64,000 bases of DNA from an uncultured virus (IMG/VR IMGVR_UViG_3300009036_000501) (lineage: Duplodnaviria; Heunggongvirae; Uroviricota; Caudoviricetes), in the IMG/VR virus record IMGVR_UViG_3300009036_000501. One strand, given 5' to 3'. The stretch's first letter is position 1. The number at the start of each line of letters is the position of its first letter. The position numbers were made by a program, and so were the translations under genes. Shown here one piece after another: positions 7,620-51,325 of this stretch. The notes beneath the pieces are model-generated. The model was not told the origin of the DNA, made no database searches, and saw nothing but the letters and a program-made list of their open reading frames with translations.

Positions 7620-7696
7620 ACTAAAAAATCACCGCCACTTCATGTATTTTAGTGTATATACTCCCCTTGAATATGAGCAAGGAGAAAGACTCCCAG

Positions 7697-28329: not shown

Positions 28330-28546
28330 GTGAGTTCTGTAGCCTCCATTCGTCCTTTTTCCGTTTCAACTCCTCATATTGTTTTTCCAGAGCACTCACC
28401 CGATCTTTATCTCCACGCAGTTTTGCCATATACTTCAAGCTGCTCACAGATTTCATCTCACGAACATATGGGTGGTTATTTACATACTCCTTATTATACT
28501 GGCGCATGTTTGCACGTCTACGTTCCAACACATCTTTATTACCCAC
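28280..28546 (-). CDS. Small basic helical protein overlapping the helicase start
   Basis: GTG start after GAGGTGG; promoter TTGACA-17-TAAAAT at 28615-28587. Confidence 0.55.
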   Translation of the reverse strand: MGNKDVLERRRANMRQYNKEYVNNHPYVREMKSVSSLKYMAKLRGDKDRVSALEKQYEELKRKKDEWRLQNSHDNEHQQHSVQNECTE

Positions 28547-29256
28547 TCAGTACCACCTCTTTAGATTTTAAGTATGTGTGTTACTCATTTTAACATGTAT
28601 TATGTGTTTTGTCAAGTATCCAAGGAGGTCTTACAAATAAGTGTGAAGGATAATACATTGCTCAAGAAAAGAGATTTTCTACTATTTTGGTGCAATACAA
28701 TGTATGAGCATAATTTAGCACGAATATGACCTCTATTTAGACATGATACTTCTAGGATACTGTTAAGACCTGCTGACGTCTAGATCATACTAGTGCACAC
28801 TTGTCAAGTATCATGGTGTGCGCAAAATGTTCCTTCTGGAAAGGGGCGGCGTCTCATCATGCTTCGGGGCTTTCGTGGAAAGGTGTAGGGGTGCCCTGCA
28901 CCTGACAGTATCAAAGGCGGTACCTAGGGTCTTAAACAACGATTTTCTGAAAAGTATATTTCTGTGAAAAGTATGCGAGTCTTTCCAGAAAAAGGCTAAG
29001 TACCCCAAGTAACATAGCAACAAAAGCGTCCCTTGCCAACAAGATTATCGCTGTCCGACGGGAAAGAAGCTTTGTGTGAAAAGTATTCTCAAGCCCAAGT
29101 AACATATTGACACGTTGCACGCCTTTCCAGAAAAGATTTTTCGGAGTCATCCTTGTGTGCAAGACGGGGGTGGTAGTGGTGTGATACGCCGAATGATACT
29201 TAGTGTACTCACTCTTCCACAAGATGTAGAGGCAACATTTCGTGAATGTCATGCAG

Positions 29257-30638
29257 TGAGTCCACTTTACGAACAAAGAACGAGTGCCTCTATCAGCTTC
29301 TCGATACCGGTGGGTGTAACTTAGGTGTGAGGTCTTGCGATAAAAGGGATAAGATGGTATCACCTCCTACACCCAACATTTGAGTCCACTAGGCCCAATA
29401 TCATGGACTCACCTTTTTAGCAAGGCCTAAGTGTGCATGGCGTGGAGATGGGACAAAGGTCTGACACTGAACAAGACCTTGCCATGAAGGTGAGTCCATA
29501 TATGGACTCACCTTGGACTCAATGTTTCTGTGTCGGTTACGAAAAGCTTGAAGGCCCTCTTCAGAATATATGGGATAAACACAGGTGAGTCCACATGTGG
29601 ACTCATATTTGAGTATTTAATTAGACCTTGCCATGAAAGGTTTCTTCCTTTTGGTCGGATACGTGTCGTGAGTCCACATTGGACTCATATCTCTGACCTT
29701 TTTTTTCTTAATTTTAAATTTATTTATAAATATTTAAAATTAATTTTTTTAAGGAATAATATACCCCCGTGTACGGTTATTTATATTTTATGTCGCGTGT
29801 GTGTATGTGTATATATTGGGGGGCGAAAAGTGCACATTTCATATATGACAAAGATACTTAGAATCAATAAGAAAAAGGTCAGAGACATGAGTCCAATGTG
29901 GACTCACGACACGTGTCTGACCAAGAGAAAGAAACCTTTCACAGCAAGGTCCAATTAAATATTCAAATGTGAGTCCACATGTGGACTCAGTATGGACTCA
30001 GAGGGGGGTTTGAGACGCACTCACGCCTTGCCACAAAAATGGACTCACTTGGTTCCACAGCACATACTCTTGTGGATACACATATATATTCCCGACCTTG
30101 TCGTAGAAAACATGGTCGCATGTGGGTGCATGGGAAATGTACATGAACGTTTGTGGAAAAACGCATAAAGCCCTATCACACTTCTTACCCAAAGGTATCT
30201 ACTGACAGAGAGACCTTGCCACGAAAATGGACTCACCACATCCGCATGCCCTGAAGTGTGCTCAAAACTTTCGTCATACGGGCAGAAGTGTGTAAAATTT
30301 TCTGGACATCCTAGCATAAAGATTGTATGCAGGGCTTGTCAGAAAAATGGACTCATGCACTGTGCATCTACGGGCGCGCCACATGCAATGCAATTCTCTC
30401 CTTGTCACGAAAGAGCCATCACCCATGTAGGGTTACAATTTAAGCGTCTCTTCTCTGTTCCCATCGTAGAGGGAAAGCAAGAGGCCCCTTTTCGATAAAT
30501 GGACTCACCACATACTGTGTGGATACGACATAGTATACTCAGTTATAAACCTTGTCCTCGCCGGTTTTCCCAGATGTTGGATGAGTGCCACACCATCCAA
30601 CTAAGCACTGTCCGCACCTTTCCAATAAGATGGACTCA
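29257..30638. repeat. Iteron-like array: 20 copies of TGAGTCCA/TGGACTCA; candidate replication origin
   Basis: Copies at 29257, 29381, 29404, 29491, 29503, 29514, 29586, 29598, 29669, 29680, 29888, 29899, 29970, 29982, 29993, 30040, 30228, 30348, 30500, 30631, within a ~2.6-kb gene-free region. Confidence 0.85.
29586..29989. repeat. ~120-bp imperfect inverted repeat flanking an AT-rich core
   Basis: Arms 29586-29710 and 29868-29989 align as reverse complements with 10 substitutions and one T-tract length difference. Confidence 0.9.
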
Positions 30639-31155
30639 CTCGATTGTAGGTAGTTGTAATCATTCACCGCCCCCTAAACACATAAGTCGGATATGTGTGA
30701 ATGAGCGCCATTTATTTGTGACGTGATCCCCACAGGGACTGTGTTTCTAGGTGAAAGCGAACTACCCAGCAGTCATCATCAATGTTACTCATTGGCTCAT
30801 GAACAAGAAAAAGCCCTCGGGAATATACCTTGTCCATGCGATGGATACAATATTCGGCATTATATTCTGCCAGATGAGTATCCCGTGCAATCCTTTCTGT
30901 GTCATAATGGTTTAGAGCAGATGAAAATGAACACCATTTGGTCTGAGCCCTTTGACCCTATTTAATGCGGGGAACACACATCAACATATACTTAACATGT
31001 TTATCCAAATGAGGCTCATTTGGCGTTGAACAGAGAAAGGCGGTCGGAAAACATACTTGATGACTAGATTTAGTATCTCCTATGTGGAGTATTAGATTGA
31101 CATATTAGGGACAGTGGGTTTAAAATTGGTTGAATACAAAGCTAGGAGGGTATAC

Positions 31156-35950: not shown

Positions 35951-36238
35951 TCATTTACGCTCTTCTGGATGTCCGCAATACCGACAACAATCCTCGTCGT
36001 ATTCCCCATCTTCTTGTGTGTAGTCGCACAAATGATCCGGAGAATCGGGGCACCACCATCCGCTTCTGGTCTCACAAACGCCACATTTGGCTTCACCATA
36101 AGTGTCTTTTCTAAACTCATGTATACAACTGGACTTCAAGTGCTTTATTTCATCTCGGATGGTTTCTTCTTCCTTTTTCACATCTGTTAGTCTGCGTTGT
36201 AATTGTGCAAGCCTCTCTTTGATCTTTTCAGCTTTCAT
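35951..36238 (-). CDS. Small coiled-coil, Cys-rich (Zn-binding) protein
   Basis: CxxC...WWCPDSPDHLC...C.YCG; AGGAGG RBS. Confidence 0.7.
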   Translation of the reverse strand: MKAEKIKERLAQLQRRLTDVKKEEETIRDEIKHLKSSCIHEFRKDTYGEAKCGVCETRSGWWCPDSPDHLCDYTQEDGEYDEDCCRYCGHPEERK

Positions 36239-36489
36239 TCGGCCCCTCCTTTCTCTGAAAACTATTAAACCACATCAATTTGTTATACGTCAAGAGCCTA
36301 CTTCTCACGCGTGCGCCCACGGAACCTTTTCTGGAAAAGAAGTAAATTGTTTGTTATTGTTTGTGTTTGTGTGTAATAGTGCTAGAAACATAACTGTTTA
36401 TAGTATTGACAAGTGTCTAGATTTTGTGATAAAATTATATTAATCCCACATTGTGGAATATAATAAAAATGTCTAAGGAGTGTTGTCTA

Positions 36490-37830
36490 GTGTCTACTGA
36501 ACTACTTAACCAAATTTATGTCGATGAAATGCAAGAAATGGTCGGAGCTGAAATTGTTTCTGCACTTGATGCCGTGAAGAAAAACAAGGCAGAAATTGCT
36601 AAGCTTGAGGCAGAACGTGCTCAGGTTTGTCCTCCAGAAGTAAAAGAACTTGAGGATAAGATCGCAGAAGCTCTAGCGAATAAAAAGAACAAAGAAGCTC
36701 TTCGGTTACGTAAAGAACTCAAAAAAATCTACCCAAGCTCCGTGCTTGCAGGTCTGGACTTCAAGTTGGAACGAGCACGCAATTGGCGTTTGTCTAATTC
36801 CGTAGCTCCGATGATGTTCTGGGGTCCTCCAGGATCGGCAAAAACACAAGGTATTACACACGCAGTTAAAAACCTGACCAATGAAAAAGGTTTGCGTGTA
36901 GCACTTATTACAACATTCATGAGTGCTTATGACCAAGTGGCGTTGCGCGGTATGCCAACGATTGACCGTGAAAATGAGGTTACCGTTTGGTATCCACAGG
37001 AAAGCTTCCCTTCCGAACTCAACTGCGCCGACTACGACGTAGTTGTATGGATGCTTGATGAACTTTCCGCCGCATCTCGTCCTGTTCAACCTGTATTGTA
37101 CCGACTTTTGCAAGAAGGACAAATCGAGGGAATGATTCTTCCTAAGAACGTCATGATGATTGCAGCAGGTAATGACAAAGATGACCGCGCTATTGCGATG
37201 GATATGTCGTCTGCAATGTCCAACCGGATGGTGCACTTCGATGTTCGTCCTTCTTTGGACCCTTGGAAACAATGGGCTATCCAATCGGGCGTTCACCCGA
37301 TGGTTATCGCTTACCACAACTCCAACCAAGGTCAAAATCTACACAACATGGATACATCCGTAGTTGGTATGATGAAGGCTTTCCCAACGTACCGTACATG
37401 GGAGAAAGTTTCCGATGATGTTTACAAGTACCACAAAAAGCCAGAGCGTCTTCTGGACTTGCGGGTCATCGGACATGTTGGTCCTGTGGCTGGAATCGAA
37501 TTCAACACATTCTTCAAACTCTTTGATCAACTGCCTGACCCAGAAGGAATTCTGGATGGTAAAGTTGAGGCAGTTCCAAAAGAGGATGATATCATCTACG
37601 CAACTCTTTCCAACCTCGTTGCTTGCATTCTCAAGAAACACACACCTGAACGTATGGACAACTTCTTCAAGTACATTTCGGCAGTGTGTGAGACTCGGGA
37701 TGAAATGGGATACATGGCTATCAATGATATGTTCCGTTCTAAGAACAACACTGTCATTCAAATGGCTATGAAAACCGCAGGCTGGACGAGATGGGCAAGC
37801 AAGATCATCAATATGCAAAGCTGGAGCTAA
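36490..37830 (+). CDS. MoxR-like AAA+ ATPase
   Basis: WGPPGSAKT, LDELSAA, AAGN, SNRMVH, PTYRTW; GTG start after AAGGAG. Confidence 0.8.
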   Translation: MSTELLNQIYVDEMQEMVGAEIVSALDAVKKNKAEIAKLEAERAQVCPPEVKELEDKIAEALANKKNKEALRLRKELKKIYPSSVLAGLDFKLERARNWRLSNSVAPMMFWGPPGSAKTQGITHAVKNLTNEKGLRVALITTFMSAYDQVALRGMPTIDRENEVTVWYPQESFPSELNCADYDVVVWMLDELSAASRPVQPVLYRLLQEGQIEGMILPKNVMMIAAGNDKDDRAIAMDMSSAMSNRMVHFDVRPSLDPWKQWAIQSGVHPMVIAYHNSNQGQNLHNMDTSVVGMMKAFPTYRTWEKVSDDVYKYHKKPERLLDLRVIGHVGPVAGIEFNTFFKLFDQLPDPEGILDGKVEAVPKEDDIIYATLSNLVACILKKHTPERMDNFFKYISAVCETRDEMGYMAINDMFRSKNNTVIQMAMKTAGWTRWASKIINMQSWS

Positions 37831-37970
37831 ACCACAACTAGAAAGAGGACAGCAACTTTGCTGTCCTCTTTCTCTTTGTCAGGGGCGAATAAGTATTGAC
37901 TTAACGTGGTATTATGTGTTACAATAAACGCAGATTTAGATCTTATAATATATGTAAGGAGTGTTGTATT

Positions 37971-39374
37971 GTGTCAAAGTCAATTAGCGCAGCTGAGCGT
38001 ATTTCAACGGTAAAAATCGATCTTATGGAACAAGAACCTTTCCTCGCGGTGCTGGGTGTTAAAACTAGGCACGTGCTGGACAACAATGAACCCACGATGT
38101 ACGTCAATGGTAAGATCATGGGATTCAATGAGGAGTTTGTGTTGGCTCAGAGCAAAGGTACGCTTAAGGGTGTAGTAGCTCACGAAATTATGCACATCGC
38201 TTTATTGCATTTGTATCGTCGTGGTGCACGTAATAGTCTTCTCTACAACTACGCGACCGACTTTGCTATCAACTGGATTCTTCGCGAGTCAAAATTCGAT
38301 CTGCCAGATGGCGGTTTGTACAGCGCTGATTTCGCAAACATGGGTGCAGAAGTCATCTACGACAAGCTTGTAGAAGCCTTGAAGAAAGAAGGCATCGACC
38401 CCAAATCTGTTGGCAAAAACCCTTCTGGCGGTCAACAGCAGTCTGGTGGACAACAATCTGGTGGACAACAATCCGGTGGACAACAATCCGGTGGACAACA
38501 ATCTGGTGGACAACAATCTGGTGGACAATCTGGTGGACAACAGTCTGGTGATCAAGGTTCTGGCCCAAGCAATAAACAAGTACATGATGCGCTCAGCAAG
38601 CACTTCGATATCGAAGGTGACCGAGTTGTGGGTAGTCATGATATGTGGGATAAGAACATGTCGGCAGAGCAAAAACAACGCGCTACAGATGATTTAGCTA
38701 GTGCAGTCAGACAAGCACAAATGGTAGCAAACATGAAACGCCAACAACAAGGAAAAGGATCTAGTCTCATTGACCGAATGATTGATGAGTTGCTGAAACC
38801 AAAGATCACTTGGCAAAAGTACGTAAAGTCCTTGATCAGACCGCGTGAGTTGGATACTTGCTACACAAATCCGGACAGATACTACTCCTATCGGGGCGAT
38901 ATCGACATGTCTATGGGAGACATTCCTTTCCCTGGCGACACCCCTGCAGGTGAGAAACTTGAAGGAGTCGTGTTTGTACTAGACACCTCCGGTTCTATAA
39001 CCCGTCAAGAAGCAACAGGATATTTATCCGAGATGCAAGGACTTATGCGTCAATTCCCAGATACACTTGCAATGTACATGTCTTGTGATTACGACTGCAC
39101 AGACCCTGTGGACTTGCAAACCGTGGATGGAACTACTATCGATCTCAAAACTGTCAAACTTAAAGGTGGCGGCGGTACATCCTTTAAACCTCCTTTCGAG
39201 TTCTTTGCAGCACCTGAAAACAAGCGCAAGTTCGATGTTCAATTGTTGGTTTACTTCACAGATGCGTATGGGGATTTCCCAACGGAAAAACCGCCATACC
39301 CAACAATCTTCTGTGTAACAACAGATGCCATCAAGAATGTGCCTGATTGGGCTATCGCTATTGACTTGAGATAA
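37971..39374 (+). CDS. DUF2201-like HExxH metallopeptidase plus vWA-like domain
   Basis: HEIMH...H..R, N.ATD.AIN, DTSGS MIDAS, GGGGTSF, FTD.YG. Confidence 0.85.
   Translation: MSKSISAAERISTVKIDLMEQEPFLAVLGVKTRHVLDNNEPTMYVNGKIMGFNEEFVLAQSKGTLKGVVAHEIMHIALLHLYRRGARNSLLYNYATDFAINWILRESKFDLPDGGLYSADFANMGAEVIYDKLVEALKKEGIDPKSVGKNPSGGQQQSGGQQSGGQQSGGQQSGGQQSGGQQSGGQSGGQQSGDQGSGPSNKQVHDALSKHFDIEGDRVVGSHDMWDKNMSAEQKQRATDDLASAVRQAQMVANMKRQQQGKGSSLIDRMIDELLKPKITWQKYVKSLIRPRELDTCYTNPDRYYSYRGDIDMSMGDIPFPGDTPAGEKLEGVVFVLDTSGSITRQEATGYLSEMQGLMRQFPDTLAMYMSCDYDCTDPVDLQTVDGTTIDLKTVKLKGGGGTSFKPPFEFFAAPENKRKFDVQLLVYFTDAYGDFPTEKPPYPTIFCVTTDAIKNVPDWAIAIDLR
38424..38555 (+). repeat. In-frame 15-bp tandem repeat (TCYGGTGGACAACAA) encoding an SGGQQ linker
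   Basis: About 8 units, including one shortened 12-bp unit. Confidence 0.9.
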
Positions 39375-39562
39375 CTTTCATTCAAAGACTAGGGCCAGCA
39401 TTCGTGCTGGCCTTTTTCATATGTAGGCATGCTTTATGCTTTTACATAAAAAGTTTAGTGCATGCGATGGTGGAAGACACGTGTCATTCCTTATATTGAC
39501 ATGTATACTGTATTAGTGATAGAATACACATACAATATGGTATGTGGAGGTTGTATATCACT

Positions 39563-41788
39563 ATGCTAATTTTAACAGAGGAAACCTTAAAGGACTGCGT
39601 TGAAGACCTAGCAGCCTCAAAAGAGATTGATCACGATACGGAGACAACCGGACTCTTTGCATTCAAAAAGATGAACAACATAAAAGATCCAGGTGAGGCG
39701 CGAATAGCTGGTCATGCTTTTTTATCACGAAAATCGAAGAGGAAATATTATATACCGATTAGACATGAAACAATCATTGAAACCACCTTAGTATACGGGC
39801 TTCCCCCAAGAACAACGAAAGAGACTCTTCACTCTGTAATTGAGGCCATTCGTGAAGGCGTACGTAGCTCTCTTGGCAGTATGTACATTGATCTCAGTTA
39901 CAACATCACGGGCTTTAGTGAAACTAAAAAGGCCCAATCCAAGCGACAAAGTGCGAAACTGAAGATACAAGTGGAAGCATATATAGACGATTATGACTTC
40001 GTGATATGTGAGACGGTCCGCAATGTAGTGGACAAACTATCTGGTTCCATCGTATCAGAAGAGTTAATTCTCAAAGAATCCACCACAGAGGTCTATGAGG
40101 GGTGCTGGAACGAATCCACAAATACTATAAAGAACTTGAGTATTGCCTTAGTTAATAACGCAATCCGTCCTATCTTCGAAGCCGAAGAGAAGACTTTCGT
40201 TGGTTTCAACTATAAGTTCGATCTCTCAGTCATGAGATTCGATGATATTATACCTAAAGCAGAAGTGCAAGATGTAATGGTGCTCTGTCATTTGAATCAA
40301 GAAAACGAATTTAACTATCGGTTGAAAGATCTGGCTGTGAAATATGTGGATAAAAACGCTAAGGATCAGCAGGATTACATCAAGGAGTACATCAAAAAGT
40401 GGAAACTAAAACGATACAGCCAAGTGCCAGCCAACTTGCTAGGTGAGTATGCAGAACAAGACGTACACCTTACTAGTGAATTGCATGAAAGTGTAATGGA
40501 TGAAATTATCACACAAAACTTTACCAATTTGACAGTGAAAGATTTTGAAAAAAATCTGGTCTACAAGGAAAGTGTATTTCTGCGTCTATTGGATAAAATA
40601 TGGTATAATGGCATCCCTATTGACCCAGCGGCATGTAGAAAAGGTATAGAAGAAGCTGATGCGCGTTCTGAGGAACTTTTGAAACAAGCGAAAGTAATCG
40701 TGGGTGTTGATGTCAACTTAAACAGCCCTGTACAACTTATGAAGATACTTGGCCTAACCACCACGGCTAAGGAGGCATTGGAAGAGAGTAGCCATCCTCT
40801 TGTATCTACAGTGCTTGAGTACCGAGCATGGCAAAAAGTCAAGACAACCTACTACGAAGTGTTTTTGAATGATCGCGACGAACAGAATAGACTTCATCCA
40901 GACTTGTTCCAGATTGGAACGGTGACTGGTCGGTTGTCTTGTCGGAATCCGAATCTCCAAGCACTACCACGGGCGAAGGATGACACTGATCCCTTTGCTC
41001 ATATCTACCGTGTCCGTAATGTAATCGTGCCTCCGGGACCAGATTATGCTCTTGTGTTTTCTGACTTATCTCAGGCCGAAATGCGGATAGCAGCCCACTA
41101 TGCTAAAGAAACAGCGATGATAGACATTATTAAAGCTGGAGGAGACTTGCATACCCAGACGGCTGTCGTTATGTTTGGTGACAAATGTATAGACCCTCGT
41201 ACGGGTGTGCCTACAAAAGAATATCGTAACTTTGCAAAAAGACTTAACTTCGGTATCATTTACGGTATGGGTGCAAAAGCCCTAGCAGGAAACTTGGGGT
41301 GCAGTATTGAGAAAGCTAAAGAACTGCTTGACCAATACCACGAAAAATTCCCAGGGTTCAAAAAGTTGTATGCAAGTGCGGAAATGCGAGCTATAGTACG
41401 TGGCTGGATTACTATGTGGTCAGGTCGTAGACGCCGTTTCAAAGGCGACAAAATTGAAATGTGGGAATGCAGAAAGGCCATGAACAATCTGATCCAAGGA
41501 TCCGTATCGGAAATGATGAAACACGCGATGATCAAAGTGGACAAATTGTTCCGTGAAGAAACCGGCGACCGCTCCTATATATTCAATCAAGTGCATGATG
41601 ACCTGCAAATGGCGGTTCACAAGGATGACTGGCACTTGGTCCCTATCATTCGAGACATTATGCAGGACCACCCTTGGTGCACAGTTCCTATCATCACAGA
41701 TACAGAATACTCTCTTACTTCTTGGGGAGAAAAGAGCAAGTGGAAAGAGGGTATCGACCCGTGGGCAACTAAGTCCTTTGTAGTCTGA
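39563..41788 (+). CDS. Family A DNA polymerase, phage-type (3'-5' exonuclease, no 5'-3' exonuclease)
   Basis: ExoI DTETTG, ExoII N.KFD, ExoIII YAEQD, TGRLS, motif A DLSQAEMR, motif B R..AK..NFG..YG, motif C QVHDD. Confidence 0.93.
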   Translation: MLILTEETLKDCVEDLAASKEIDHDTETTGLFAFKKMNNIKDPGEARIAGHAFLSRKSKRKYYIPIRHETIIETTLVYGLPPRTTKETLHSVIEAIREGVRSSLGSMYIDLSYNITGFSETKKAQSKRQSAKLKIQVEAYIDDYDFVICETVRNVVDKLSGSIVSEELILKESTTEVYEGCWNESTNTIKNLSIALVNNAIRPIFEAEEKTFVGFNYKFDLSVMRFDDIIPKAEVQDVMVLCHLNQENEFNYRLKDLAVKYVDKNAKDQQDYIKEYIKKWKLKRYSQVPANLLGEYAEQDVHLTSELHESVMDEIITQNFTNLTVKDFEKNLVYKESVFLRLLDKIWYNGIPIDPAACRKGIEEADARSEELLKQAKVIVGVDVNLNSPVQLMKILGLTTTAKEALEESSHPLVSTVLEYRAWQKVKTTYYEVFLNDRDEQNRLHPDLFQIGTVTGRLSCRNPNLQALPRAKDDTDPFAHIYRVRNVIVPPGPDYALVFSDLSQAEMRIAAHYAKETAMIDIIKAGGDLHTQTAVVMFGDKCIDPRTGVPTKEYRNFAKRLNFGIIYGMGAKALAGNLGCSIEKAKELLDQYHEKFPGFKKLYASAEMRAIVRGWITMWSGRRRRFKGDKIEMWECRKAMNNLIQGSVSEMMKHAMIKVDKLFREETGDRSYIFNQVHDDLQMAVHKDDWHLVPIIRDIMQDHPWCTVPIITDTEYSLTSWGEKSKWKEGIDPWATKSFVV

Positions 41789-42024
41789 TATGTGTGGAGG
41801 GGGTATAGAGTCATGAACCCTCTCCACCAAATCCTCTTTTGCATTTATGAACTGCAATTATTGAGTTAACTACAACCGCATGTTAGAATACATATAAGAA
41901 TTAATGGTTGATTTATATAGCACCTTAGAATGACTAACAAAATAGAACACCCATCCCATAGACTGTCTAGTTAAGATACCGTTAGCTAGGTGGTCTATTT
42001 ACTTTCTATATATTCATAAAAGAG

Positions 42025-42480
42025 GTGAAATGTATGTTGTTCATTGTTCTAGACCCTGGAAAATCTACAGGCATGACTGTTATGAAAGACGGAAAGTACA
42101 TATTTGGATGTACTGTTGAGGATTATAACTGGACTTGGCTCATGGAAAAAGTGGAAAGTCTAGCTGCGAGACACAAAAATGTGACAGTCATTACAGAGGA
42201 ATTTCGCGTATACCCTGGAATGGGTGCACAACAAGCTCTCCAACCTGCTTGGAGTGCACAAATAAATGGGATGCTAGAGTATTTTGTGTATTTGAATAGT
42301 AGAAAAGGAAAAAACTATCACTTTATAAAACAGTGGGCATCGACAGCTAAGACATATAGCAGTGATGATAAACTTAAGCAACACGGGTTATGGAAAGGCA
42401 CGAAACATCAAAAAGACAGTGCACGTCACTATATATTCTATATTGAAAATACACGCAATAAGGAGATGAAAAGGGCATGA
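42025..42480 (+). CDS. RuvC-like Holliday junction resolvase (phage type)
   Basis: LDPGKSTG, EEF, H..DS.RH. Confidence 0.65.
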   Translation: MKCMLFIVLDPGKSTGMTVMKDGKYIFGCTVEDYNWTWLMEKVESLAARHKNVTVITEEFRVYPGMGAQQALQPAWSAQINGMLEYFVYLNSRKGKNYHFIKQWASTAKTYSSDDKLKQHGLWKGTKHQKDSARHYIFYIENTRNKEMKRA

Positions 42481-43004
42481 GACTCCCGCAAACAGAGTAT
42501 ACGTTATCCATGCACACACTGAAAGGCTCCCGTTTTTCATGGGTATGGTATACCTTCTCTGTATGTCTCGCTATTGCATATGTGACGGTTGCATTTAACT
42601 TTAATAGCCTCTATGTCAATGATATAGTTTTTCTACTGCAACTGCCAGTGTACGTAGCTGTGATCATCCTGCATGAGGGAATACATATTGTTTGGAAGAT
42701 CATATTTGGCTATACTGGGAAAATGGTGCGCGTAAGGAATGGGTCGACATCTATAATAACCTTCGTTGTGGATCAGCCCATCAAGAAATGGCACTTTTTG
42801 GCTATCGTATCCAGCCCGTTTATTTTGCTTAACATCGCGACCATACCATTCCTGTTTACACCTTATGCACCCTATATACTTCTCCCCATGCTGTTGAACA
42901 ACTTGGGGTGCCATATTGATGCCAAACTCACAGCTGTTGCGTTGTTATCTAATCCGAAACATGTGGAAGTAAACAATGGCACTATTCGGTATGTGTATAC
43001 TTGA
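42477..43004 (+). CDS. DUF3267-like membrane metalloprotease
   Basis: LHEGIH within a TM region, SPF, N...D motif. Confidence 0.65.
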   Translation: MRLPQTEYTLSMHTLKGSRFSWVWYTFSVCLAIAYVTVAFNFNSLYVNDIVFLLQLPVYVAVIILHEGIHIVWKIIFGYTGKMVRVRNGSTSIITFVVDQPIKKWHFLAIVSSPFILLNIATIPFLFTPYAPYILLPMLLNNLGCHIDAKLTAVALLSNPKHVEVNNGTIRYVYT

Positions 43005-43144
43005 GACATGTATACTTTGACGTCTTTTCTGACATAGATGGAATTGAGCATGTTCCGAGCATCCGGTTTTAATTCATTGACTATACATACCGAACTGTGA
43101 TACAATTACAGTACAACACCAAAATTGATTTAGGAGGACTTAAT

Positions 43145-44227
43145 ATGGAAAGATCTTTAGATGTTATTCTCGACTTGTCGTTTGGTTCGTGTGGTAAAGG
43201 CCTTATCGGGGGCTATCTCGCCACTCGTAACAAGTACGACTTCGCTATAGAGAGCTATGGTGTGCAGGCTGGCCATACGGTTATTAAGGAAGATGGCACT
43301 ACATACGTTGTACAACAACTCCCACAAGCACTGATCGACCCAGATGTGAAATTGTATATTGGGGCTGGAGCAGTAATCGACATTGATCAGCTCAAAAAAG
43401 AAGTGGATGAGTATCTAGGCGGCATGGAAAAAGCAAAAGGTCGTTTGTTCATTCACCCACGCGCTTCTGTAATTCAAGACCAACATAAACAGTGGGAAAG
43501 AGAAAACATTAGATCTGGTAGCACATTTAAAGGTGTTGGAGCAGCCAGTGGGTTTAAGGCCATGAGACACCCGGATCACACCCTCATTAAAGATTTACCA
43601 GAGTGGGCCGACTTTATTGCGGATACAGCTGAACTCGCTTGTGATGCTTTAGAAGATGGCAAATCAGGCATTCTGGAAGTGGCTCAAGGATTCGAACTAG
43701 GTTTAAACCACGGGTTCCAGTATCCTAATTGTACAAGTCGGGAATGCACACCTATGCAAGGTCTATCGGACAATGGTATTCCTCCAAAACACGTTCGCGA
43801 CACATATGGTGTAATCCGGACGTACCCAATTCGTATTTCCAATGAAATGGCTACTTCCGAAGGTGGACAAGCCTACTCAGGTGATGGCGGTAAAGAAATC
43901 ACCTGGGAAGAAGTAGAAGACCGGGCAGGTGCTCCACGTGGTGCATTCTCCTCAAAAGAATTAACTACAGTGACTAAAAAGCTCCGTCGTGTCTTTGAAT
44001 TCGATGTGGAACGTATCAAGCGGGCTGTGAAAATCACAGGGGTAAACAAATTGGCCGTCAACTTCATTCAGTATGTCAACTATGTTGATGCTGGCGTTAC
44101 TGATTACGAAAAACTGTCTGAAAAATCAAAAGAATTTATTCGGATGATTGAGAAAGAAACAGGTGTACCAGTAGTTCTTATTGGTACCGGACCTCGTAAC
44201 GACCAAGTCATCGACCTAGAAGCATAA
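43145..44227 (+). CDS. purZ: Adenylosuccinate-synthetase homologue with PurZ signature
   Basis: FGSCGKG (Ser in place of the PurA Asp), AGHT, GST..GVG, E.AQG, YP.CTSR, RTYPIR, TTVTK..RR, NFIQ in place of TKLD; 360-aa short form. Confidence 0.75.
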   Translation: MERSLDVILDLSFGSCGKGLIGGYLATRNKYDFAIESYGVQAGHTVIKEDGTTYVVQQLPQALIDPDVKLYIGAGAVIDIDQLKKEVDEYLGGMEKAKGRLFIHPRASVIQDQHKQWERENIRSGSTFKGVGAASGFKAMRHPDHTLIKDLPEWADFIADTAELACDALEDGKSGILEVAQGFELGLNHGFQYPNCTSRECTPMQGLSDNGIPPKHVRDTYGVIRTYPIRISNEMATSEGGQAYSGDGGKEITWEEVEDRAGAPRGAFSSKELTTVTKKLRRVFEFDVERIKRAVKITGVNKLAVNFIQYVNYVDAGVTDYEKLSEKSKEFIRMIEKETGVPVVLIGTGPRNDQVIDLEA

Positions 44228-44235
44228 TATAAAAC

Positions 44236-44272
44236 AAAAAGAGAGAGTTCACACATGTGACTCTCTCTTTTT
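44236..44272 (+). terminator. Terminator after the purZ-like gene
   Basis: AAAAAGAGAGAGT...ACTCTCTCTTTTT. Confidence 0.75.
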
Positions 44273-44343
44273 ATGCTAGAATTGACACAGTATGTTGATG
44301 TGTGTTATGATAACAGCATAAACCATATAAGGAGTGTTTTATA

Positions 44344-44601
44344 ATGTATGTGTATATCGTTGTTTTTCCAGGATTTGAATTCGAGGGATCAGCTGTTATC
44401 GTAGCTAGTGACCAAGAAAAAGCATGTACTCAACTAGAAGATCACTTCCGTCAGGAAAGATTTGGAAAAGAAGGTGAAGAAAATTTTCACCCCGACCACC
44501 CAGAAGTTTTCTCATATAGTGTTGTATCTAAAATAAAAGCGGCAACAGATGAAGAGCCTAGCTTAAAATACATTAATTATGGTGGAGAAGGATCTAGATA
44601 A
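44344..44601 (+). CDS. Small hypothetical protein
   Basis: Promoter 44282-44311, AAGGAG RBS, terminator 44611-44649. Confidence 0.7.
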   Translation: MYVYIVVFPGFEFEGSAVIVASDQEKACTQLEDHFRQERFGKEGEENFHPDHPEVFSYSVVSKIKAATDEEPSLKYINYGGEGSR

Positions 44602-44762
44602 CACACACATAAATGAAAGGGAGTACCAAGAAGGTACTCCCTTTCATTTATGTATTTACCAAAAACATTCCGGAACAGAGAAGGAAATACATATTATTGA
44701 TTCGTCTCCTGGCACATGGTAGAATGGTGTATGTATTTTACTATGTATGTGAGGAGATAAAT

Positions 44763-47366
44763 ATGAGAGATACATCATTCAAGTTTATAGATTTGTTTGC
44801 TGGTATAGGAGGTTTTCGTACAGCTTTTGAAAGACTGGGCGGTCAATGTGTTTTTTCTTCAGAAATAAACCCTTTTGCACAACAAGCCTATAACATATTG
44901 CATGGGGAAGTACCAGCGGGAGATATACGACAAGTACAGGCAGATGATATCCCTGATTTCGATTTGCTATGCGGAGGCTTTCCTTGTTTTGCTGCAGGTG
45001 AATTGGTCACTACATCTATGGGTATGAAGCCCATCGAAGATATAAAAAAGGGTGACTATGTGCTAACACATAAAAATCGGTTTAGAAAAGTAGTTATGCC
45101 TATGGTGAAACACAAACAAGGAATCTTCCGGTTAAGTGTTTTGGGAAGCCCGAGCACTTTTGTTACTGAAGAGCACCCATATTATGTACGTCGTTATACC
45201 AGAGTTTGGAATAATGATAAGAGGACATATGAAAGAGTGTGGGGGCCCCCTGAATGGAAAGCTGTCAAAGATTTAACCAAAGAGGATTATGTTGGGTTTG
45301 CCACAAATAAAAAGGCAGAGAACATAAAGAACTTAACTGCTGAGCAGTGTTGGCTTTTAGGGCGATATGTCGCAGATGGGTATATCCGCAATTATGCACG
45401 AAAAGGGAGACAGAACTCACATCATCATATTGTCACCTTCTGCATTGGAAAACACAAACTTGATAATTTTCGACAACGAGTGACTGAGTATTCTCTAGGT
45501 GTGACAGAAGAAAAAACTTCATACAAATGCAGAATCATAAACGAACACTTTATGAATCTGTGTATTGAGTGTGGGCGAGGCGCGCACAATAAACAAATTC
45601 CTGGATACATCATGGATTTACCTGAAGATCTCCTCCAGCATTTTTTAGATGGGTACATATCTGGGGATGGGGATGTGAACAAAAATAACGTGATAAAAGC
45701 CACAACTGTTAGCAGACAACTAGCCTACCAAGTATCCCAGGCAGTGCAAAAAGTGTATAAAAAGCCTTGTAGCATTATCAAAGTAAAAACGGCTGATCAA
45801 AAAGTTATTGAGGGACGAGTAGTGAATCAATCTGATTACTTTCAGATACGATTCAAGACCACTCCTTCCAACCGAGATAGATCTAAATATCTTGATGATA
45901 TGCTTTGGTGCCCCGTGAAAGATCTAACTTGGATTCCTAATTATGACTCCGTAGTCCACAACTTCGAAGTTGAAGAAGACAATAGTTATGTAGTCAATAA
46001 CTGTGTCGTACACAACTGTCAGGCCTTCTCCTTTGCTGGCAAGAGGCTCGGATTTGCCGATGAAACTAGGGGTACCTTGTTTTTTGAAATAGCCCGCATA
46101 GCAGAAGCTAAGAAACCGAAGTACCTATTCCTAGAGAACGTGAAAGGTCTGGTGAACCACGAAAAAGGACGTACTCTAGACACAATTGTCAGGACTCTAT
46201 CGGATCTGGGATATTCTGTAGACTTTGAAGTGATAAACTCAAAGTACTATGGCGTTCCTCAAAATAGAGAACGTATCTATATTGTAGGTGTGTTGGATGG
46301 GGAAGTAAGCCCATATGTTGTCTCAAAGAAGAAGTCCATTATATCGGCAGCAAAGAAAAGACAAAATGAGTATGGGGATATACGGTCTTTCAACTTTGCA
46401 TGGCCTACAAATTCCGAGGTCACTACATCTGTACGTGATATTATGGAAGACAATGTTGATGACATCTTCTATATGACTGAGGACAAAACTGAAAAATTGA
46501 TAGATGTGTTGACAAACCGAGGGTACTTTTCTGAGGAACGTCTTGGCAGGATGGAAATGGTGGGATTGTTACATTACCGTGGCACAGATCAAACACGGCG
46601 TGTATATGATGCGAATGGGTTGGCTCCTACATTGACGGCACATAGTGGTGGAAGTACAGAACCGAAGGTTCTATATTCAGAAGATATCATGGAGTTTTCC
46701 ATGGGTGATGGCATAACCTGTTGTGTGGATGCTAGTTACTCCAAGGGGGTTTCACCCAATTGTGTAGGCAAGGGTAGGCGTACTCATATTGTGGAACCTA
46801 ATAGTGCAAATCTCACACCTAAGTGGAAGATACGTAAACTTACACCGGTGGAGTGTTTCAGACTCCAGAGCTTTCCCGAGTCCAGCATTATCAAATTAAA
46901 ACAATCCGGCATCAAAAACACTCAGCTATACAGAATGGCGGGGAACTCAGTAACAGTAAATGTCATACAAAGTATTGGAACTAATATAGTCCATTTATCT
47001 AATGGGAGTTCACCTGTACAAGAGTGCCTGCCGTTAGAACCTCAGACCTCTATGACATGCGAATATGAGAAAAATGAACATGAAAGACGAGTTTCCAAGG
47101 CCCCATCTGATGTGACTGAACAATGTGGTTCATTTACTCAACTCATGTTTAAGTATATTAAACACACTAAGATAGTGGAAAGAAAAACAACGACAGATTT
47201 ATACAATGACGTCAAGAGTTTTGCAAATGAACTAAATATTTCAGATCCTGGTTTAAGCAACCCTATATATTTTGGCACTATTATGAAGATAAAATCTGAA
47301 GAATTAGCCAATTTAGGTATACGTGTCAATAAAAGCAAGAAGCATTGGTCAATAACTCGGCCATAA
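44763..47366 (+). CDS. C5 DNA cytosine methyltransferase containing an intein
   Basis: DLFAGIGG, GGFP|CQAFS, ENVKG, QNRER, RKLTP.EC.RLQ.FP, GNSV. Confidence 0.92.
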   Translation: MRDTSFKFIDLFAGIGGFRTAFERLGGQCVFSSEINPFAQQAYNILHGEVPAGDIRQVQADDIPDFDLLCGGFPCFAAGELVTTSMGMKPIEDIKKGDYVLTHKNRFRKVVMPMVKHKQGIFRLSVLGSPSTFVTEEHPYYVRRYTRVWNNDKRTYERVWGPPEWKAVKDLTKEDYVGFATNKKAENIKNLTAEQCWLLGRYVADGYIRNYARKGRQNSHHHIVTFCIGKHKLDNFRQRVTEYSLGVTEEKTSYKCRIINEHFMNLCIECGRGAHNKQIPGYIMDLPEDLLQHFLDGYISGDGDVNKNNVIKATTVSRQLAYQVSQAVQKVYKKPCSIIKVKTADQKVIEGRVVNQSDYFQIRFKTTPSNRDRSKYLDDMLWCPVKDLTWIPNYDSVVHNFEVEEDNSYVVNNCVVHNCQAFSFAGKRLGFADETRGTLFFEIARIAEAKKPKYLFLENVKGLVNHEKGRTLDTIVRTLSDLGYSVDFEVINSKYYGVPQNRERIYIVGVLDGEVSPYVVSKKKSIISAAKKRQNEYGDIRSFNFAWPTNSEVTTSVRDIMEDNVDDIFYMTEDKTEKLIDVLTNRGYFSEERLGRMEMVGLLHYRGTDQTRRVYDANGLAPTLTAHSGGSTEPKVLYSEDIMEFSMGDGITCCVDASYSKGVSPNCVGKGRRTHIVEPNSANLTPKWKIRKLTPVECFRLQSFPESSIIKLKQSGIKNTQLYRMAGNSVTVNVIQSIGTNIVHLSNGSSPVQECLPLEPQTSMTCEYEKNEHERRVSKAPSDVTEQCGSFTQLMFKYIKHTKIVERKTTTDLYNDVKSFANELNISDPGLSNPIYFGTIMKIKSEELANLGIRVNKSKKHWSITRP
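44985..46016 (+). mobile_element. 344-aa intein with LAGLIDADG homing endonuclease
   Basis: Starts CFAAG, block B TEEHP, LLGRYVADG and FLDGYISGDG, ends VVHN before +1 Cys. Confidence 0.92.
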
Positions 47367-47467
47367 ACAAAAAGAGGGGGACCGCCAGTTGGGCGATCCC
47401 CTTCGTCCGTTCGTGTAAAATGTAAAGAGTGTTGTGAGTGTCGCAGCAACTGTGTCAAGGTTGCTAC
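47366..47467 (-). ncRNA. Putative ~100-nt trans-acting small RNA
   Basis: Consensus promoter upstream, 5' hairpin (GUAGCAAC/GUUGCUGC), C/U-rich middle, GC hairpin with U-tail on the minus strand only; middle complementary to several RBS regions. Confidence 0.6.
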
Positions 47468-47473
47468 ACTTTT

Positions 47474-47503
47474 ATTATATCACACGGACACGCGTCTTGT
47501 CAA
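47474..47503 (-). promoter_or_regulatory. sigma-A promoter of the putative sRNA
   Basis: TTGACA-18-TATAAT with TGTG extended -10 on the minus strand. Confidence 0.75.
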
Positions 47504-47588
47504 GTGCAGTATGCTTTCAGGTCAATTGTTAACGTCGCGAAAATAGTGTTAGTTATTGACGAATTTTTGTATGTAATGCTATGATGAC

Positions 47589-47819
47589 ATGAAGGAGATG
47601 ATGAAATTGAGTATTCAATTAGGTGCAATTAAACTAGAAGTGTTGGAAACGAGTGTGGAAATTTCAGGTATCGGATACACGCATAAGGTTCATGGACTGC
47701 CCGATCATGATTATTGGGTGTTTGCACGCCCTAAGTTCGAGGACGGCAACATTTTGCATATTATCGTCTACAATCCCAGCACTCACAGAAGTAATAAAGT
47801 ACTAGTAACCAGTCAGTGA
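47589..47819 (+). CDS. Small hypothetical protein
   Basis: Promoter 47556-47585; AAGGAG suggests the real start is a few codons downstream. Confidence 0.55.
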   Translation: MKEMMKLSIQLGAIKLEVLETSVEISGIGYTHKVHGLPDHDYWVFARPKFEDGNILHIIVYNPSTHRSNKVLVTSQ

Positions 47820-47900
47820 GTGAATTCAGACTAAATTATTGTGTATTACACTTCAGACAGTATATAATTGGAAATAAATACATGTCTAGGAGTGTCGTAT

Positions 47901-49055
47901 ATGCAAAATATGTTGCTTAATTTACGTAGTCTACAACAAATAAATACTCGCATTTCGGAGAAATCCACCGAAATAAAACAAACCAAAGCATTTTACACCC
48001 AACTGTTTAGCGAAAATTTGCAAGAACTTACGTCTTTGCTAGGTGGACTAAAGAAAATGCGAGACTTGCATACTCGCTCTGCTGAGTCACTTTATCCTTT
48101 ACAGTCTGGGTTGTTTGATCTATCGCATATCCAGGAACTCACACGATCTCTTTCAGATGAGATTGATCATCTGACTCAGCAAGCGGAAGTTAGTATGAAT
48201 GAACAAAAGGGCACAGAGAAATTGGCAAACCTCCACGAAGAACTGGAACGCCTAGGGAATGAGCAGGTCAATCTGGAAAAGGCATTGGTTCAAGGTTTTT
48301 GGGACTTGTCTGATAACCTGAAGTCTGTACAGTACGAAACAGCCGATATGTTTGCTGTACACTATGATGTCCTTACACACATCTTGGTAACTGAACATTC
48401 TGTTTCACCTGTTGATGCTGCTGACATTGTAAACCTTGTCACTCACTACGTGAAGGGTAAAAGTGAATATAGTTCTAGCAGTGTCGAATTAGTAAGAGTG
48501 GAAAAAAGTAAGGTCGGATCTTCTTTCGGATTAGGGGAAGACCCTTTTGAAGTGACCGTGAATGGTCACACACTACAAAAATTTGATCTTGATAAAACAA
48601 TCGACAAAAAGAAAAACCACATGATCATCTCCGGTACAGTTGACGTGCAGATAGAAGGGGATGTGTCATGTGTTCTTGATGAGGACGCAGGTGTTTTCGC
48701 TACGAAAGACCAGCATTGGATTCTTCAAGGATATACTTTACAAAATTATATTGCCGTGGCTACAGCACATGTAGAATTTGTTTTTGATATGGACAGATGT
48801 TTGGAATCGTCTGATATTGATCTCCGACAAGAAGAAGTGAAATTTACGCTTCCAGTGCTAAAGATCGAACCATGTGTAAATTCAGACACTCTCAACCTTT
48901 TGGTAAAGATGTTAATGGAAGAAGTCCAAAAAGTTGATGTTGAAGAACTAGCGTGGGGAACAATATTAAGTGAAGTGGTATCAAAGGATATTGAAGATTC
49001 ACTTAAATCTGACATCGAAGATATGGCGAAAGAAATAGAATTTACAGTGAGCTGA
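47901..49055 (+). CDS. Hypothetical acidic protein with N-terminal coiled coil
   Basis: AGGAG RBS; terminator at 49066-49091. Confidence 0.75.
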   Translation: MQNMLLNLRSLQQINTRISEKSTEIKQTKAFYTQLFSENLQELTSLLGGLKKMRDLHTRSAESLYPLQSGLFDLSHIQELTRSLSDEIDHLTQQAEVSMNEQKGTEKLANLHEELERLGNEQVNLEKALVQGFWDLSDNLKSVQYETADMFAVHYDVLTHILVTEHSVSPVDAADIVNLVTHYVKGKSEYSSSSVELVRVEKSKVGSSFGLGEDPFEVTVNGHTLQKFDLDKTIDKKKNHMIISGTVDVQIEGDVSCVLDEDAGVFATKDQHWILQGYTLQNYIAVATAHVEFVFDMDRCLESSDIDLRQEEVKFTLPVLKIEPCVNSDTLNLLVKMLMEEVQKVDVEELAWGTILSEVVSKDIEDSLKSDIEDMAKEIEFTVS

Positions 49056-49168
49056 ATACTTTTTTAAAGAGGTGGCATATGCCACCTCTTTTCCTATTTA
49101 TTGACAGGCCTGTACATATCGTGATAAACTGTACATATTAAAACAAGGTATGTACATGATATAAGGAT

Positions 49169-49798
49169 GTGGATATATTGCAACCTGGACTATTTGTTGT
49201 GTTTGAGGGACCAGAAGGAGCCTCGAAAGGAACACAATCCCAACTATTTGCGGATTATTTACAGGATAAAAAAATCCCATACATACACACACGAGAGCCA
49301 GATGGCCCTATTCGTAGTGTTTTGCTTGATCCTGCAAATACGGGAATGATACACGATGACACAGAAGTGTTGTTGTACGCTGCTTCACGCGTTAACAAAT
49401 TTTTAACCGAAATAAAACCTGCGCTTGAAGAAGGAAAAGTTGTGGTATGTGATCGTTACCTTGAGTCCTCTCTCGCATATCAGGGTTATGCTGGTGGAGT
49501 GGATCTAGCGAAGATACTGAGCATCCATGACGCTTTTATAAATGATAGCAGGGTGACTCTGTTGTTTGACATTTCTTATGAAACAAGCAGGAAAAGGTTG
49601 GGGACACGGGGAGAAGCGCTAGATAGGCTCGAGATGAAGTCAGAAGTATATCACAGAAAAGTTATTGATGGTTATAGGAAACTAGCCAAAGATTACTCTC
49701 ACATTAAGCGTATAGATGCGAATCAAACAATTGATCAAGTACATTCAGAAGTGTTGAGTTTATTGACTCCACTACTGGAAGAAAGAGGGATGTTATGA
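49169..49798 (+). CDS. tmk: Thymidylate kinase
   Basis: FEGPEGASKGT P-loop variant, TREP, E.LLYAASR, CDRY..SSLAYQG, DRLE. Confidence 0.85.
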   Translation: MDILQPGLFVVFEGPEGASKGTQSQLFADYLQDKKIPYIHTREPDGPIRSVLLDPANTGMIHDDTEVLLYAASRVNKFLTEIKPALEEGKVVVCDRYLESSLAYQGYAGGVDLAKILSIHDAFINDSRVTLLFDISYETSRKRLGTRGEALDRLEMKSEVYHRKVIDGYRKLAKDYSHIKRIDANQTIDQVHSEVLSLLTPLLEERGML

Positions 49799-50310
49799 GT
49801 AAACGAGTAATTATATCTCTCATTTCTCCACCTGGAGGTGGGAAAACAACTATACTTAAGCATTTGTCCGAGCATCACCAATTGCCCATACTGAGTTCGG
49901 GAGATATAGCGAGGCAAATGCAGAGGGATACAGAAACGAATTTCCTAATACAAGGGGGATTTGCTCCTGAAGAAGAGATGAGACGCAGACTCTTAGAATC
50001 CATTGAGACATTATTTGTCTCTAGCAACGTGATACTGGCTGATGGGTTCCCGAGATTCGTTGACCAGCTGAATTGGTTGGAAAACTCTCTAGATGGCGTG
50101 GATATTGTATTGTACCACTTGGATGTGCCATTGGACAAATGTAGAGACAGACTGCAGTCTCGCAATCGTTCTGATGACAATGAAGAAACTATAGAGGCAA
50201 GATTCAAACAATATACTGAACAAACAGAGCCAATTGTCACTTCGCGACATCTGCGACGGTACAATTATGATTTTGTGACTCAAGTAATTCTTGCGGCAAA
50301 GAAAAATTAG
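49795..50310 (+). CDS. Adenylate-kinase-family NMP kinase (short LID)
   Basis: PPGGGKT, SSGDIAR, DGFPR, R.RSDDNEETI..R. Confidence 0.8.
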   Translation: MSKRVIISLISPPGGGKTTILKHLSEHHQLPILSSGDIARQMQRDTETNFLIQGGFAPEEEMRRRLLESIETLFVSSNVILADGFPRFVDQLNWLENSLDGVDIVLYHLDVPLDKCRDRLQSRNRSDDNEETIEARFKQYTEQTEPIVTSRHLRRYNYDFVTQVILAAKKN

Positions 50311-50323
50311 GAGGTTTAATACA

Positions 50324-51325
50324 ATGCAAATGTGCTATCTTGCAGGTGCTATCGATATGGTTATTCCAGAACAGGCTAGAGGTTGGAGAGACAATGTCTC
50401 TAAAGTGTTAAACGATCATGGCATCCACACTTTTGATCCAGCTTCTGCTTTTAATCTATCTCGTAAGGATAGCGAGACATGGTTGTCCAAAACAGATATG
50501 GTTATCAAACTAAACAACATGGCCTTAGACAGTTCCGAGATTATGCTGGCCGAAATGGAATTTAATTGCCAGCATACAGGCACTACCCGCGAACTTATTC
50601 GTGCCAGTGAACAAGATGGGAAGCTTGTTGTGGTGTGGAACTCAAGCGAGTATACTCCCCTATATCTCACAGATATCCCCAATCTTGTTATCAAATCTAC
50701 ACTGGCAGAGTGTGTGGAATATATTATCGAAAAAATAACAGGGGTCGCTCCTAGTCCCGACGTATGCCGTTCTGTATTGGAAACTAAAGTGGACAAACCT
50801 GCCATTAAAGTTATGCTGACTGAAAAGCATCCTTTAATGATCGCAAAAGAACGTGGTGAAATTTCCGATATTGATCCTTCAATGCTGTTATTCAAGAAAC
50901 ACAGCGATGATACTGGGTATGACATTATGTGCACTGAGAACGTGACAGTACCTCCAGGGGGAAAAGTACAAGTGCCAACACATTTGGCTATCCAGCCGCC
51001 AAAAGGTTACTGGTATCGTTTGGTTGCTAGATCCTCAACATTCCATGTCCATGAGATGCTGGTGGTAGAAGGCATCATCGATACACAATTCCGAGGTGTG
51101 TTGTACTGCAACATTCAGAACATGAGCAATGAGACTAAGACAATCCGTGCTGGTGATTCTGTGGCCCAACTGATATTCCATGAGATCGTAGGCGAACATT
51201 GGGATGTGTCAGTGCACGACTCTCTGGATGCTACGGATCGTGGTGAAGGTGGATTCGGAAGTACAACTGCTTCTAAAGACTTTATCGTGGAGATGTACCA
51301 AAAATACGCTTCCGTGACGGTTTAA
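50324..51325 (+). CDS. Fusion of nucleoside 2-deoxyribosyltransferase/Rcl-like domain and trimeric dUTPase-like domain
   Basis: N-terminal YLAG, WR, DP, GT..E; C-terminal GYD, RSS, GIIDTQFRG, AQL, RGEGGFGST. Confidence 0.8.
   Translation: MQMCYLAGAIDMVIPEQARGWRDNVSKVLNDHGIHTFDPASAFNLSRKDSETWLSKTDMVIKLNNMALDSSEIMLAEMEFNCQHTGTTRELIRASEQDGKLVVVWNSSEYTPLYLTDIPNLVIKSTLAECVEYIIEKITGVAPSPDVCRSVLETKVDKPAIKVMLTEKHPLMIAKERGEISDIDPSMLLFKKHSDDTGYDIMCTENVTVPPGGKVQVPTHLAIQPPKGYWYRLVARSSTFHVHEMLVVEGIIDTQFRGVLYCNIQNMSNETKTIRAGDSVAQLIFHEIVGEHWDVSVHDSLDATDRGEGGFGSTTASKDFIVEMYQKYASVTV

Follow-up and report, generated by a model that had tools for sequence, protein, structure and literature searches.

A predicted small RNA complementary to several translation-start regions on a Gram-positive-type conjugative element

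We analysed a 64,000-nt stretch of DNA (the window) from the uncultured-virus record IMGVR_UViG_3300009036_000501 of IMG/VR, and found on its minus strand, between positions 47503 and 47366, a short transcription unit that is predicted to encode a small RNA (sRNA) of about 100 nt. The open middle region of this RNA is complementary to the Shine-Dalgarno (SD) sequences and start codons of several distant genes in the same window. The window is part of a 116-kb soil metagenome contig, its positions 27971–49371 are matched at 100% identity by the contig L001, and the Pfam annotation of the window indicates a Gram-positive-type conjugative element. On the basis of one sequence and one partial relative, we consider it very probable that the minus-strand RNA is at least transcribed, and we put the probability that it is a functional trans-acting sRNA against ribosome-binding sites (RBS) at roughly 50%.

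The unit begins with a promoter made up of the -35 box TTGACA (47503–47498) and the extended -10 box TGaTATAAT (47482–47474, with TG at 47482–47481 and TATAAT at 47479–47474). With its 18-nt spacer, this promoter (TTGACA-18-TGnTATAAT, 47503–47474) scored 12/12, in agreement with a preliminary description of this DNA, made from the letters alone, which had named a consensus minus-strand promoter followed by about 100 nt ending in a terminator of the minus strand only. A whole-window scan with 200 shuffles showed five perfect promoters, where 0.05 are expected, and 17 promoters that score 11/12 or higher, where the expectation is 2.3; the TG and a spacer of 17–18 nt are common to nearly all of them, and most of the strong promoters had the 18-nt spacer, which is unusual. 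The other four perfect promoters are located upstream of protein-coding genes (Alp7A-like, g9762, relaxase-like and HU-like), which means that this promoter class is a real feature of the element, and that the fifth would drive a short unit only.

Judged by the usual spacing from a -10 box, the RNA would start at about 47467–47470 and open with a 5' hairpin (47467–47443, minus strand). The hairpin is followed by the open seed region (47442–47412, minus strand), which is the reverse complement of GTGTAAAATGTAAAGAGTGTTGTGAGTGTC at 47413–47442, and then by an intrinsic terminator (47401–47366, minus strand). The stem-loop of the terminator (47401–47377) has 10 pairs, 8 of them G-C, followed by the U run CTCTTTTTGT, and is located some 65 nt past the inferred start. 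Read on the plus strand the same hairpin has no T run, so termination is predicted for the minus strand only, and no minus-strand gene lies beyond it. The 102-nt RNA (47467–47366) folded into a 5' hairpin, an open middle and the terminator at -34.3 kcal/mol (z = -4.97), and none of 200 shuffles was as good. The unpaired probability of nt 26–53 was about 0.9 or more, and the middle part that had been described earlier as unstructured was therefore recovered as such. There is no SD-preceded open reading frame (ORF) within the RNA, and the sole frame (TTG at 47458) passes through the terminator. A search with Rfam 15 at gathering thresholds gave 0 matches in the whole window, and permissive settings on 47200–47700 gave seven matches which were all far under the cut-offs (best 21.2 bits vs 45). 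In sum, its own promoter and an intrinsic terminator bound a short non-coding unit, as in trans-encoded sRNAs.

Read on the plus strand, the seed locus contains the 16-mer core ATGTAAAGAGTGTTGT, and near-copies of this core with at most three mismatches were found at six sites, one of them the locus itself, where 1.16 would be expected (none of 100 shuffles reached six). The five other copies all sit directly upstream of start codons. The copy at 37952 (one mismatch) precedes the gene for a DUF2201 vWA/metallopeptidase (vWA; 37971–39374, plus strand), while the copies with three mismatches each precede the genes for a MoxR-like AAA ATPase (copy at 36471; gene at 36490–37830, plus strand), a cca-like tRNA nucleotidyltransferase (copy at 24282; gene at 24299–25774, plus strand), a relaxase/nicking-initiator-like Replic_Relax protein (copy at 5876–5891; gene at 4884–5873, minus strand) and g44344 (copy at 44325). 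The core motif is non-palindromic, and its orientation and spacing to the start codon are constant. The near-copies at the RBS and start of vWA, MoxR, cca and the relaxase-like gene were thus the same as those listed in the preliminary description, and the bulged match at MoxR was reproduced as well. That most differences are A to G and keep pairing as G·U also held, with 9/13 A>G in the five ungapped core copies. But eight of these nine fell at core positions 5–7 (AAA in the locus), the purine tract which forms the upstream part of the targets' SD, so the A>G excess is equally explained by the SD constraint in real genes and is not independent evidence of selection on pairing.

Duplex energies of the seed were calculated against 54 curated start regions. 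This analysis showed that six of the 54 reached -20 kcal/mol or lower, namely vWA (-30.0), MoxR (-29.0), the relaxase-like gene (-24.4), cca (-23.7), g9762 (-20.6) and g6073 (-20.3), while the next best value was -18.5 and the median was -9.9 kcal/mol. At the MoxR and vWA starts the seed pairing spanned 16 + 5 bp and 12 + 7 + 6 bp. The starts of g44344 and g47901, whose matches had been called weak from the beginning, gave -15.8 and -13.4 kcal/mol. When the 31-nt seed was scanned against the whole window (25,584 overlapping 40-nt windows, both strands), the start regions of vWA (-30.0) and MoxR (-29.0 kcal/mol) were the top two trans matches, no other trans match was better than -24.5, and start regions accounted for five of the best six. 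The seed energies did not correlate with the pairing of a generic anti-SD string (r of about 0). Shuffled seeds (300 shuffles and 300 more keeping the CUCUUU core) never had a second-best energy past -24.8 kcal/mol (-25.9 with the core kept), and never had more than four start regions (five with the core kept) at -20 or lower, against six observed. Pairing no better than for generic SD regions had been named in advance as an outcome that would speak against the sRNA; together, the lack of correlation and the shuffled-seed result indicated that the complementarity of the open seed to start regions exceeds both chance and generic SD pairing.

In the longer leaders of g9762, g6073 and the relaxase-like gene, the match to the seed consists of three blocks (AGTGTAAAA..., an SD block and a start block), of which the one in the g9762 leader had been noticed before. 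We also calculated net cofold energies for the 54 start regions, in which intramolecular structure is charged against the pairing. By this measure there were five outliers between -16.9 and -26.9 kcal/mol (g9762 -26.9, g6073 -25.8, MoxR -25.0, vWA -21.0 and relaxase-like -16.9), and most of the other 49 lay between about -10 and -1. The start of the MecA-like gene (-14.3) is probably a chance match, cca dropped to -13.7, and g44344 (-11.1) and g47901 (-9.7) were close to the background. By calculation, the strongest candidate targets are therefore MoxR, vWA, g9762, g6073 and the relaxase-like gene. The predicted pairing would cover the region from SD to start codon at vWA (37951–37975, plus strand; start 37971) and MoxR (36466–36495, plus strand; start 36490; duplex -29.0 / -29.5), and leader plus start at g9762 (324 aa, no family; 9727–9769, plus strand; -26.5), g6073 (88 aa, DUF1294; 6035–6077, plus strand; -24.6) and the Replic_Relax gene (5871–5914, minus strand; -28.2). 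The leader and start of the cca-like gene (24276–24315, plus strand) are a weaker candidate, and the leader before g44344 (44325–44340, plus strand) is a look-alike. The proposal of one anti-SD sRNA with a multi-gene regulon thus stood as far as the accessible seed and its complementarity to several starts are concerned, while cca, g44344 and g47901 lost ground as members and g6073 was added.

The genes that bear the motif each come first in a separately promoted unit. Full promoters (TTGACA-17/18-TGnTAxAAT) were found upstream of g9762 (a perfect one, at 9686–9715), the relaxase-like gene, MoxR, cca and g44344, which gave leaders of about 28–70 nt; leaders of just 12–16 nt, with TATAAT right before the SD, were ruled out by these promoters further upstream. 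The plus strand of the sRNA locus itself resembles a compacted, gene-less leader of this family, with TAAAAT, GTAAAGAG and the GTG TC that MoxR and vWA also have at their starts, and with AAAGAG as its SD-like block. This resemblance to a compact leader with a GTGTC start suggests that the seed may go back to a duplicated 5' end of a target. Another leader, which resembles the family weakly, precedes an 88-aa ORF (28280–28546, minus strand, start at 28546). About 50 nt of this ORF lie over the start of an 810-aa ORF that belongs to no known family (25897–28329, minus strand) and is read in a different frame; either a frameshift or a pair of overlapping genes could account for this.

The only usable relative was L002, 21 kb of a 303-kb metagenome contig, whose vWA protein is 52% identical; a further relative, P0002 on a contig of roughly 175 kb, has a vWA with 56% identity. 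In L002, GTAAGGAGTGTTG stands before MoxR, vWA and two more genes, and ATGTAAGGAGTGTC before a fifth (8587, 9971, 19413, 19960 and 21202). The alignment of the MoxR leaders from the window and L002 showed islands of identity at the extended -10 region and at TAAGGAGTGTTGTC. Two tested motif-bearing genes of L002 and one neighbour had no homology to window genes, and the L002 genes downstream of its PurA-like gene had no detectable similarity to window genes either, which meant that synteny is broken there and that the motif accompanies unrelated genes in the two elements. The conservation of a spacer beyond the SD across the lineage argues for a trans-acting reader, and the sole candidate for it in the window is this RNA.

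Some results weigh against a function in trans. The single best match of a shuffled seed reached -30.5 (or -32.7) kcal/mol by chance, so the case rests on the set of targets and not on any one of them. The duplex energies of g9762, g6073 and the relaxase-like gene include target bulges of 10–15 nt and are probably optimistic. No sRNA-like unit was found in the 21 kb of L002, but this is uninformative, because synteny breaks before the relevant place and nothing follows from the absence for the remainder of the element. None of the searches made gave a homologue of the RNA. Finally, the complementarity could be plain common descent, the plus strand looking like a decayed copy of the leader cassette. 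If so, 47413–47442 would be a gene-less relic of a promoter-leader-start cassette in the 3' untranslated region (UTR) of the methylase gene, and the minus-strand RNA would have no effect on the leaders. The family hallmarks, present in order, the degraded SD of the locus (AAAGAG) and the lack of a homologue showing conservation of the RNA fit such a relic, as does the A>G excess in the SD tract, where only real genes are constrained. We nevertheless think this unlikely, since a perfect TG promoter reading across the locus together with a dedicated minus-only terminator is hardly expected by chance (the 0.05 perfect promoters per window given above) and the other perfect promoters all precede protein-coding genes; moreover, the cassette copy falls exactly in the sole open stretch between two strong hairpins, and no other gene-less cassette copy exists in the window.

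The unit lies opposite the 3' end of a C5 cytosine methylase gene with an intein (44613–47366; Hint, LAGLIDADG and Intein_splicing matches between the methylase halves), so a local role as a cis-antisense RNA also had to be weighed. Here the RNA would act on the methylase mRNA (44613–47366 plus about 100 nt), where duplex cleavage or convergent collision would set mRNA stability or stop read-through into the genes at 47601 and 47901. Antisense pairs that overlap at their 3' ends are typically convergent, as here. On the plus strand the 5' hairpin has a T run behind it and resembles a terminator of the methylase transcript (47445–47465); as it lies beyond the seed, this transcript would be perfectly complementary to almost all of the RNA (-52.9 for the seed alone). 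As the sole function we consider this quite unlikely, because it leaves unexplained five or six distant start matches far better than those of shuffled seeds, as well as the leader motif kept in L002, where there is no methylase at that place; a local role would not exclude one in trans, and the 3' UTR could be a sponge. It is very unlikely, in our view, that the leader motif serves another factor (an RNA- or DNA-binding regulator or a translation-enhancing context) and that the sRNA is incidental or a decoy for it. Such a factor would agree with the conservation of the motif in L002, where no sRNA was seen in the 21 kb, and with its operator-like position at the first genes of separately promoted units, but the non-palindromic motif with constant orientation and spacing fits recognition at the RNA level, the RNA is the only specific matcher of the motif in the window, and no CsrA- or Hfq-like protein was found among the 68 window ORFs scanned (20 small and 48 larger). 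We rejected a type I toxin-antitoxin pair as highly improbable. In such a pair the minus-strand RNA would serve as antitoxin to a plus-strand 48-codon ORF (47438–47584), over whose SD and start it would lie; the GTG start of this ORF is 8 nt past the SD-like AAAGAG and is indeed covered by the antisense RNA. The 48-codon peptide, however, has no clear membrane helix, and its ORF has no plus-strand promoter of its own and crosses the terminator-like hairpin of the plus strand, the minus-strand promoter and the promoter of the next gene.

Relatives were sought in several collections. DNA searches with 47340–47530 and 46800–48200 against PLSDB, and with 47340–47530 against INPHARED, gave no match. 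Of two DNA runs whose contigs were compared with the window, X1 is probably its source, and X2 gave contig fragments 90–100% alike to parts of 36000–49500, none of which extended over 47275–47725. The metagenome scan found the own contig L001, L002 and the distant L003; L003 is without the leader motif, and its best seed match (-20.0) was not at an obvious start. No relative was found with the vWA protein or alignment among viral contigs, with the alignment among genome contigs, or with the PurA-like protein among genome contigs. In tblastn searches, vWA reached at most 37% identity among plasmids, in proteobacterial or cyanobacterial ones only, and at most 34% among phages, and the 384-aa neighbour protein had no match among plasmids. 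The VirB4-like protein had at most 28% identity among plasmids, and because its best matches were plasmids of the Bacillus group (about 27%), the host is probably Bacillota-like.

The predicted RNA was compared with known regulatory RNAs. In the Bacillota, RsaE/RoxS, FsrA and RNAIII of S. aureus are chromosomal trans-acting sRNAs which mask the SD of many unrelated genes by pairing C-rich seeds with G-rich SDs. The RNA of the window resembles them in its hairpin, open seed and terminator and in the predicted position of its seed over the SD and start of several mRNAs, but its seed is a long (16–30 nt) antisense copy of a specific leader family and has U opposite SD guanines. Plasmid countertranscripts such as CopA, RNAI, pIP501 RNAIII and FinP are encoded in cis opposite a single target leader and pair perfectly with it through kissing loops. 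Like these, the window RNA would be a constitutive, plasmid-borne, hairpin-flanked antisense RNA which tracks dosage and blocks replication or transfer genes, but it is cis-antisense to a 3' UTR only, its putative targets are elsewhere and their pairing is imperfect; the cis-countertranscript class was rejected, as the unit lies opposite the methylase 3' UTR and no leader. The CI RNA of the satellite P4 is, like the C4 RNA (immI) of the phages P1/P7, encoded by a mobile element, and it acts by termination. According to a passage in PMC8198154, which cites Citron and Schuster (1990), C4 is a small RNA of the element which acts on the element's own genes by pairing with short sequences duplicated in the target leader and is required for keeping them off. 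The window RNA would share with C4 and CI that a mobile element directs a small RNA at its own genes through duplicated leader sequences. C4 and CI are processed from the operon that they control, and this is a single one, whereas a perfect promoter and a terminator of its own delimit the window RNA, and its candidate targets are about 9–42 kb off, spread over at least five units with separate promoters; the type of host also differs (Bacillota-like here), and there is no relationship in sequence or Rfam. Thus, by analogy, the window RNA would work like the C4/CI immunity RNAs without being of their family, and membership in that class was rejected because the RNA is not processed from a target operon. 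XrrA/XrrB of pXO1 are plasmid-borne, trans-acting sRNAs in the Bacillota (PMC7843513), and they are not known to be related to the window RNA in sequence, targets or logic.

If the RNA acts in trans, it would be made constitutively from its consensus promoter, and with its open seed it would cover the SD and start codon of MoxR, vWA and three or four more leaders by base pairing, so that 30S binding is blocked. Pairing would lower translation and perhaps trigger duplex-dependent decay. The U opposite SD guanines would weaken binding to generic SDs, and we infer that specificity shifts to the flanks (GUGUUGU and GUGUC). The promoters of the RNA and of its candidate targets are near consensus and presumably constitutive, so the RNA would be a brake that depends on element dosage or on time. 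Its gene dosage tracks the element, which would make it a dosage brake, but it must also accumulate after entry and could equally act as a timer, as the preliminary description had proposed with its transient expression in a new recipient; the sequence does not distinguish a timer from a dosage or copy-number brake. Its perfect complementarity to the methylase 3' UTR means that the RNA may in addition affect that mRNA or be titrated by it.

The remaining annotation of the window describes the setting of these genes. The coupling protein is encoded at 1752–3737, and TcpC, TcpE, VirB4-like and M23/SLT genes lie at 52–62 kb. The element also encodes two Replic_Relax proteins and the Alp7A-like actin, and has a phage-like replication and nucleotide module with SNF2 and DEAD helicases, a PD-(D/E)XK nuclease, AAA_24 and DUF669, which also includes the genes for a family-A DNA polymerase and for PurA-like, Tmk, Adk-like and dUTPase-like proteins, as well as the MoxR, vWA, C5 methylase and cca-like genes described above. 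A prepilin-peptidase-like protein (A24), a MecA-like adaptor and a primase-like protein of 420 aa are encoded at 3770–8347 beside the first Replic_Relax gene; the second paralogue lies at 18050–18907, followed by a small protein resembling sigma-70 region 4 (18909–19322). In the region 28900–30700, about 1.8 kb without convincing genes, TGGACTCA / TGAGTCCA repeats are densely packed; they occur in either orientation and frequently form palindromic pairs. CCTTGCCA repeats are present there too, and the iteron-like repeats may mark an origin or a partition site.

The PurA-like protein (43145–44227) is nearest to the short phage-type enzymes. Its best PDB matches were 6fm1/6fko/6tnh (E 5e-45) together with 7odx, named PurZ, and among its best phage matches were genes annotated as 2-aminooxy adenylosuccinate synthetase as well as a Bacillus phage with 41% identity. 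It has the residues FGSCGKG where 6fm1 has FGSTGKG. Its gene is located 1.3 kb downstream of the family-A DNA polymerase gene and near the Tmk, Adk-like and dUTPase-like genes (39563–41788 and 49178–51325 are also involved), and together these genes might form a module for 2-aminoadenine (Z-DNA) of the PurZ/DpoZ type, carried by a conjugative element.

Control of Gram-positive-type conjugative elements is known mainly through protein repressors and antitermination. The establishment genes of pLS20 are an example (PMC6294495). In keyword searches of the literature we found no anti-RBS sRNA of a Gram-positive conjugative element that is directed at several leaders, which does not establish that none is in print; the same searches turned up sRNAs of plasmids and islands (XrrA/B and the SGI1 sRNA) and FinP-like RNAs. 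A wider and speculative idea, which we rate as improbable, is that GTAAGGAGTGTTG is a lineage-wide "leader code" at the first genes of separately promoted units, even unrelated ones, and that one RNA reads it and gates the translation of replication, establishment and transfer-initiation genes at once. The RNA would then be a post-transcriptional zygotic-induction timer or a dosage sensor, on an element which also has a PurZ-like/family-A polymerase module. If the trans-acting sRNA is real, it would be a compact case of a mobile element which controls many of its own strongly promoted genes post-transcriptionally by a single RNA. It would also offer a way to test how a plasmid that has just entered a cell restrains its costly early functions, and the natural pair of a short seed and its leader would be usable as an orthogonal translational switch.

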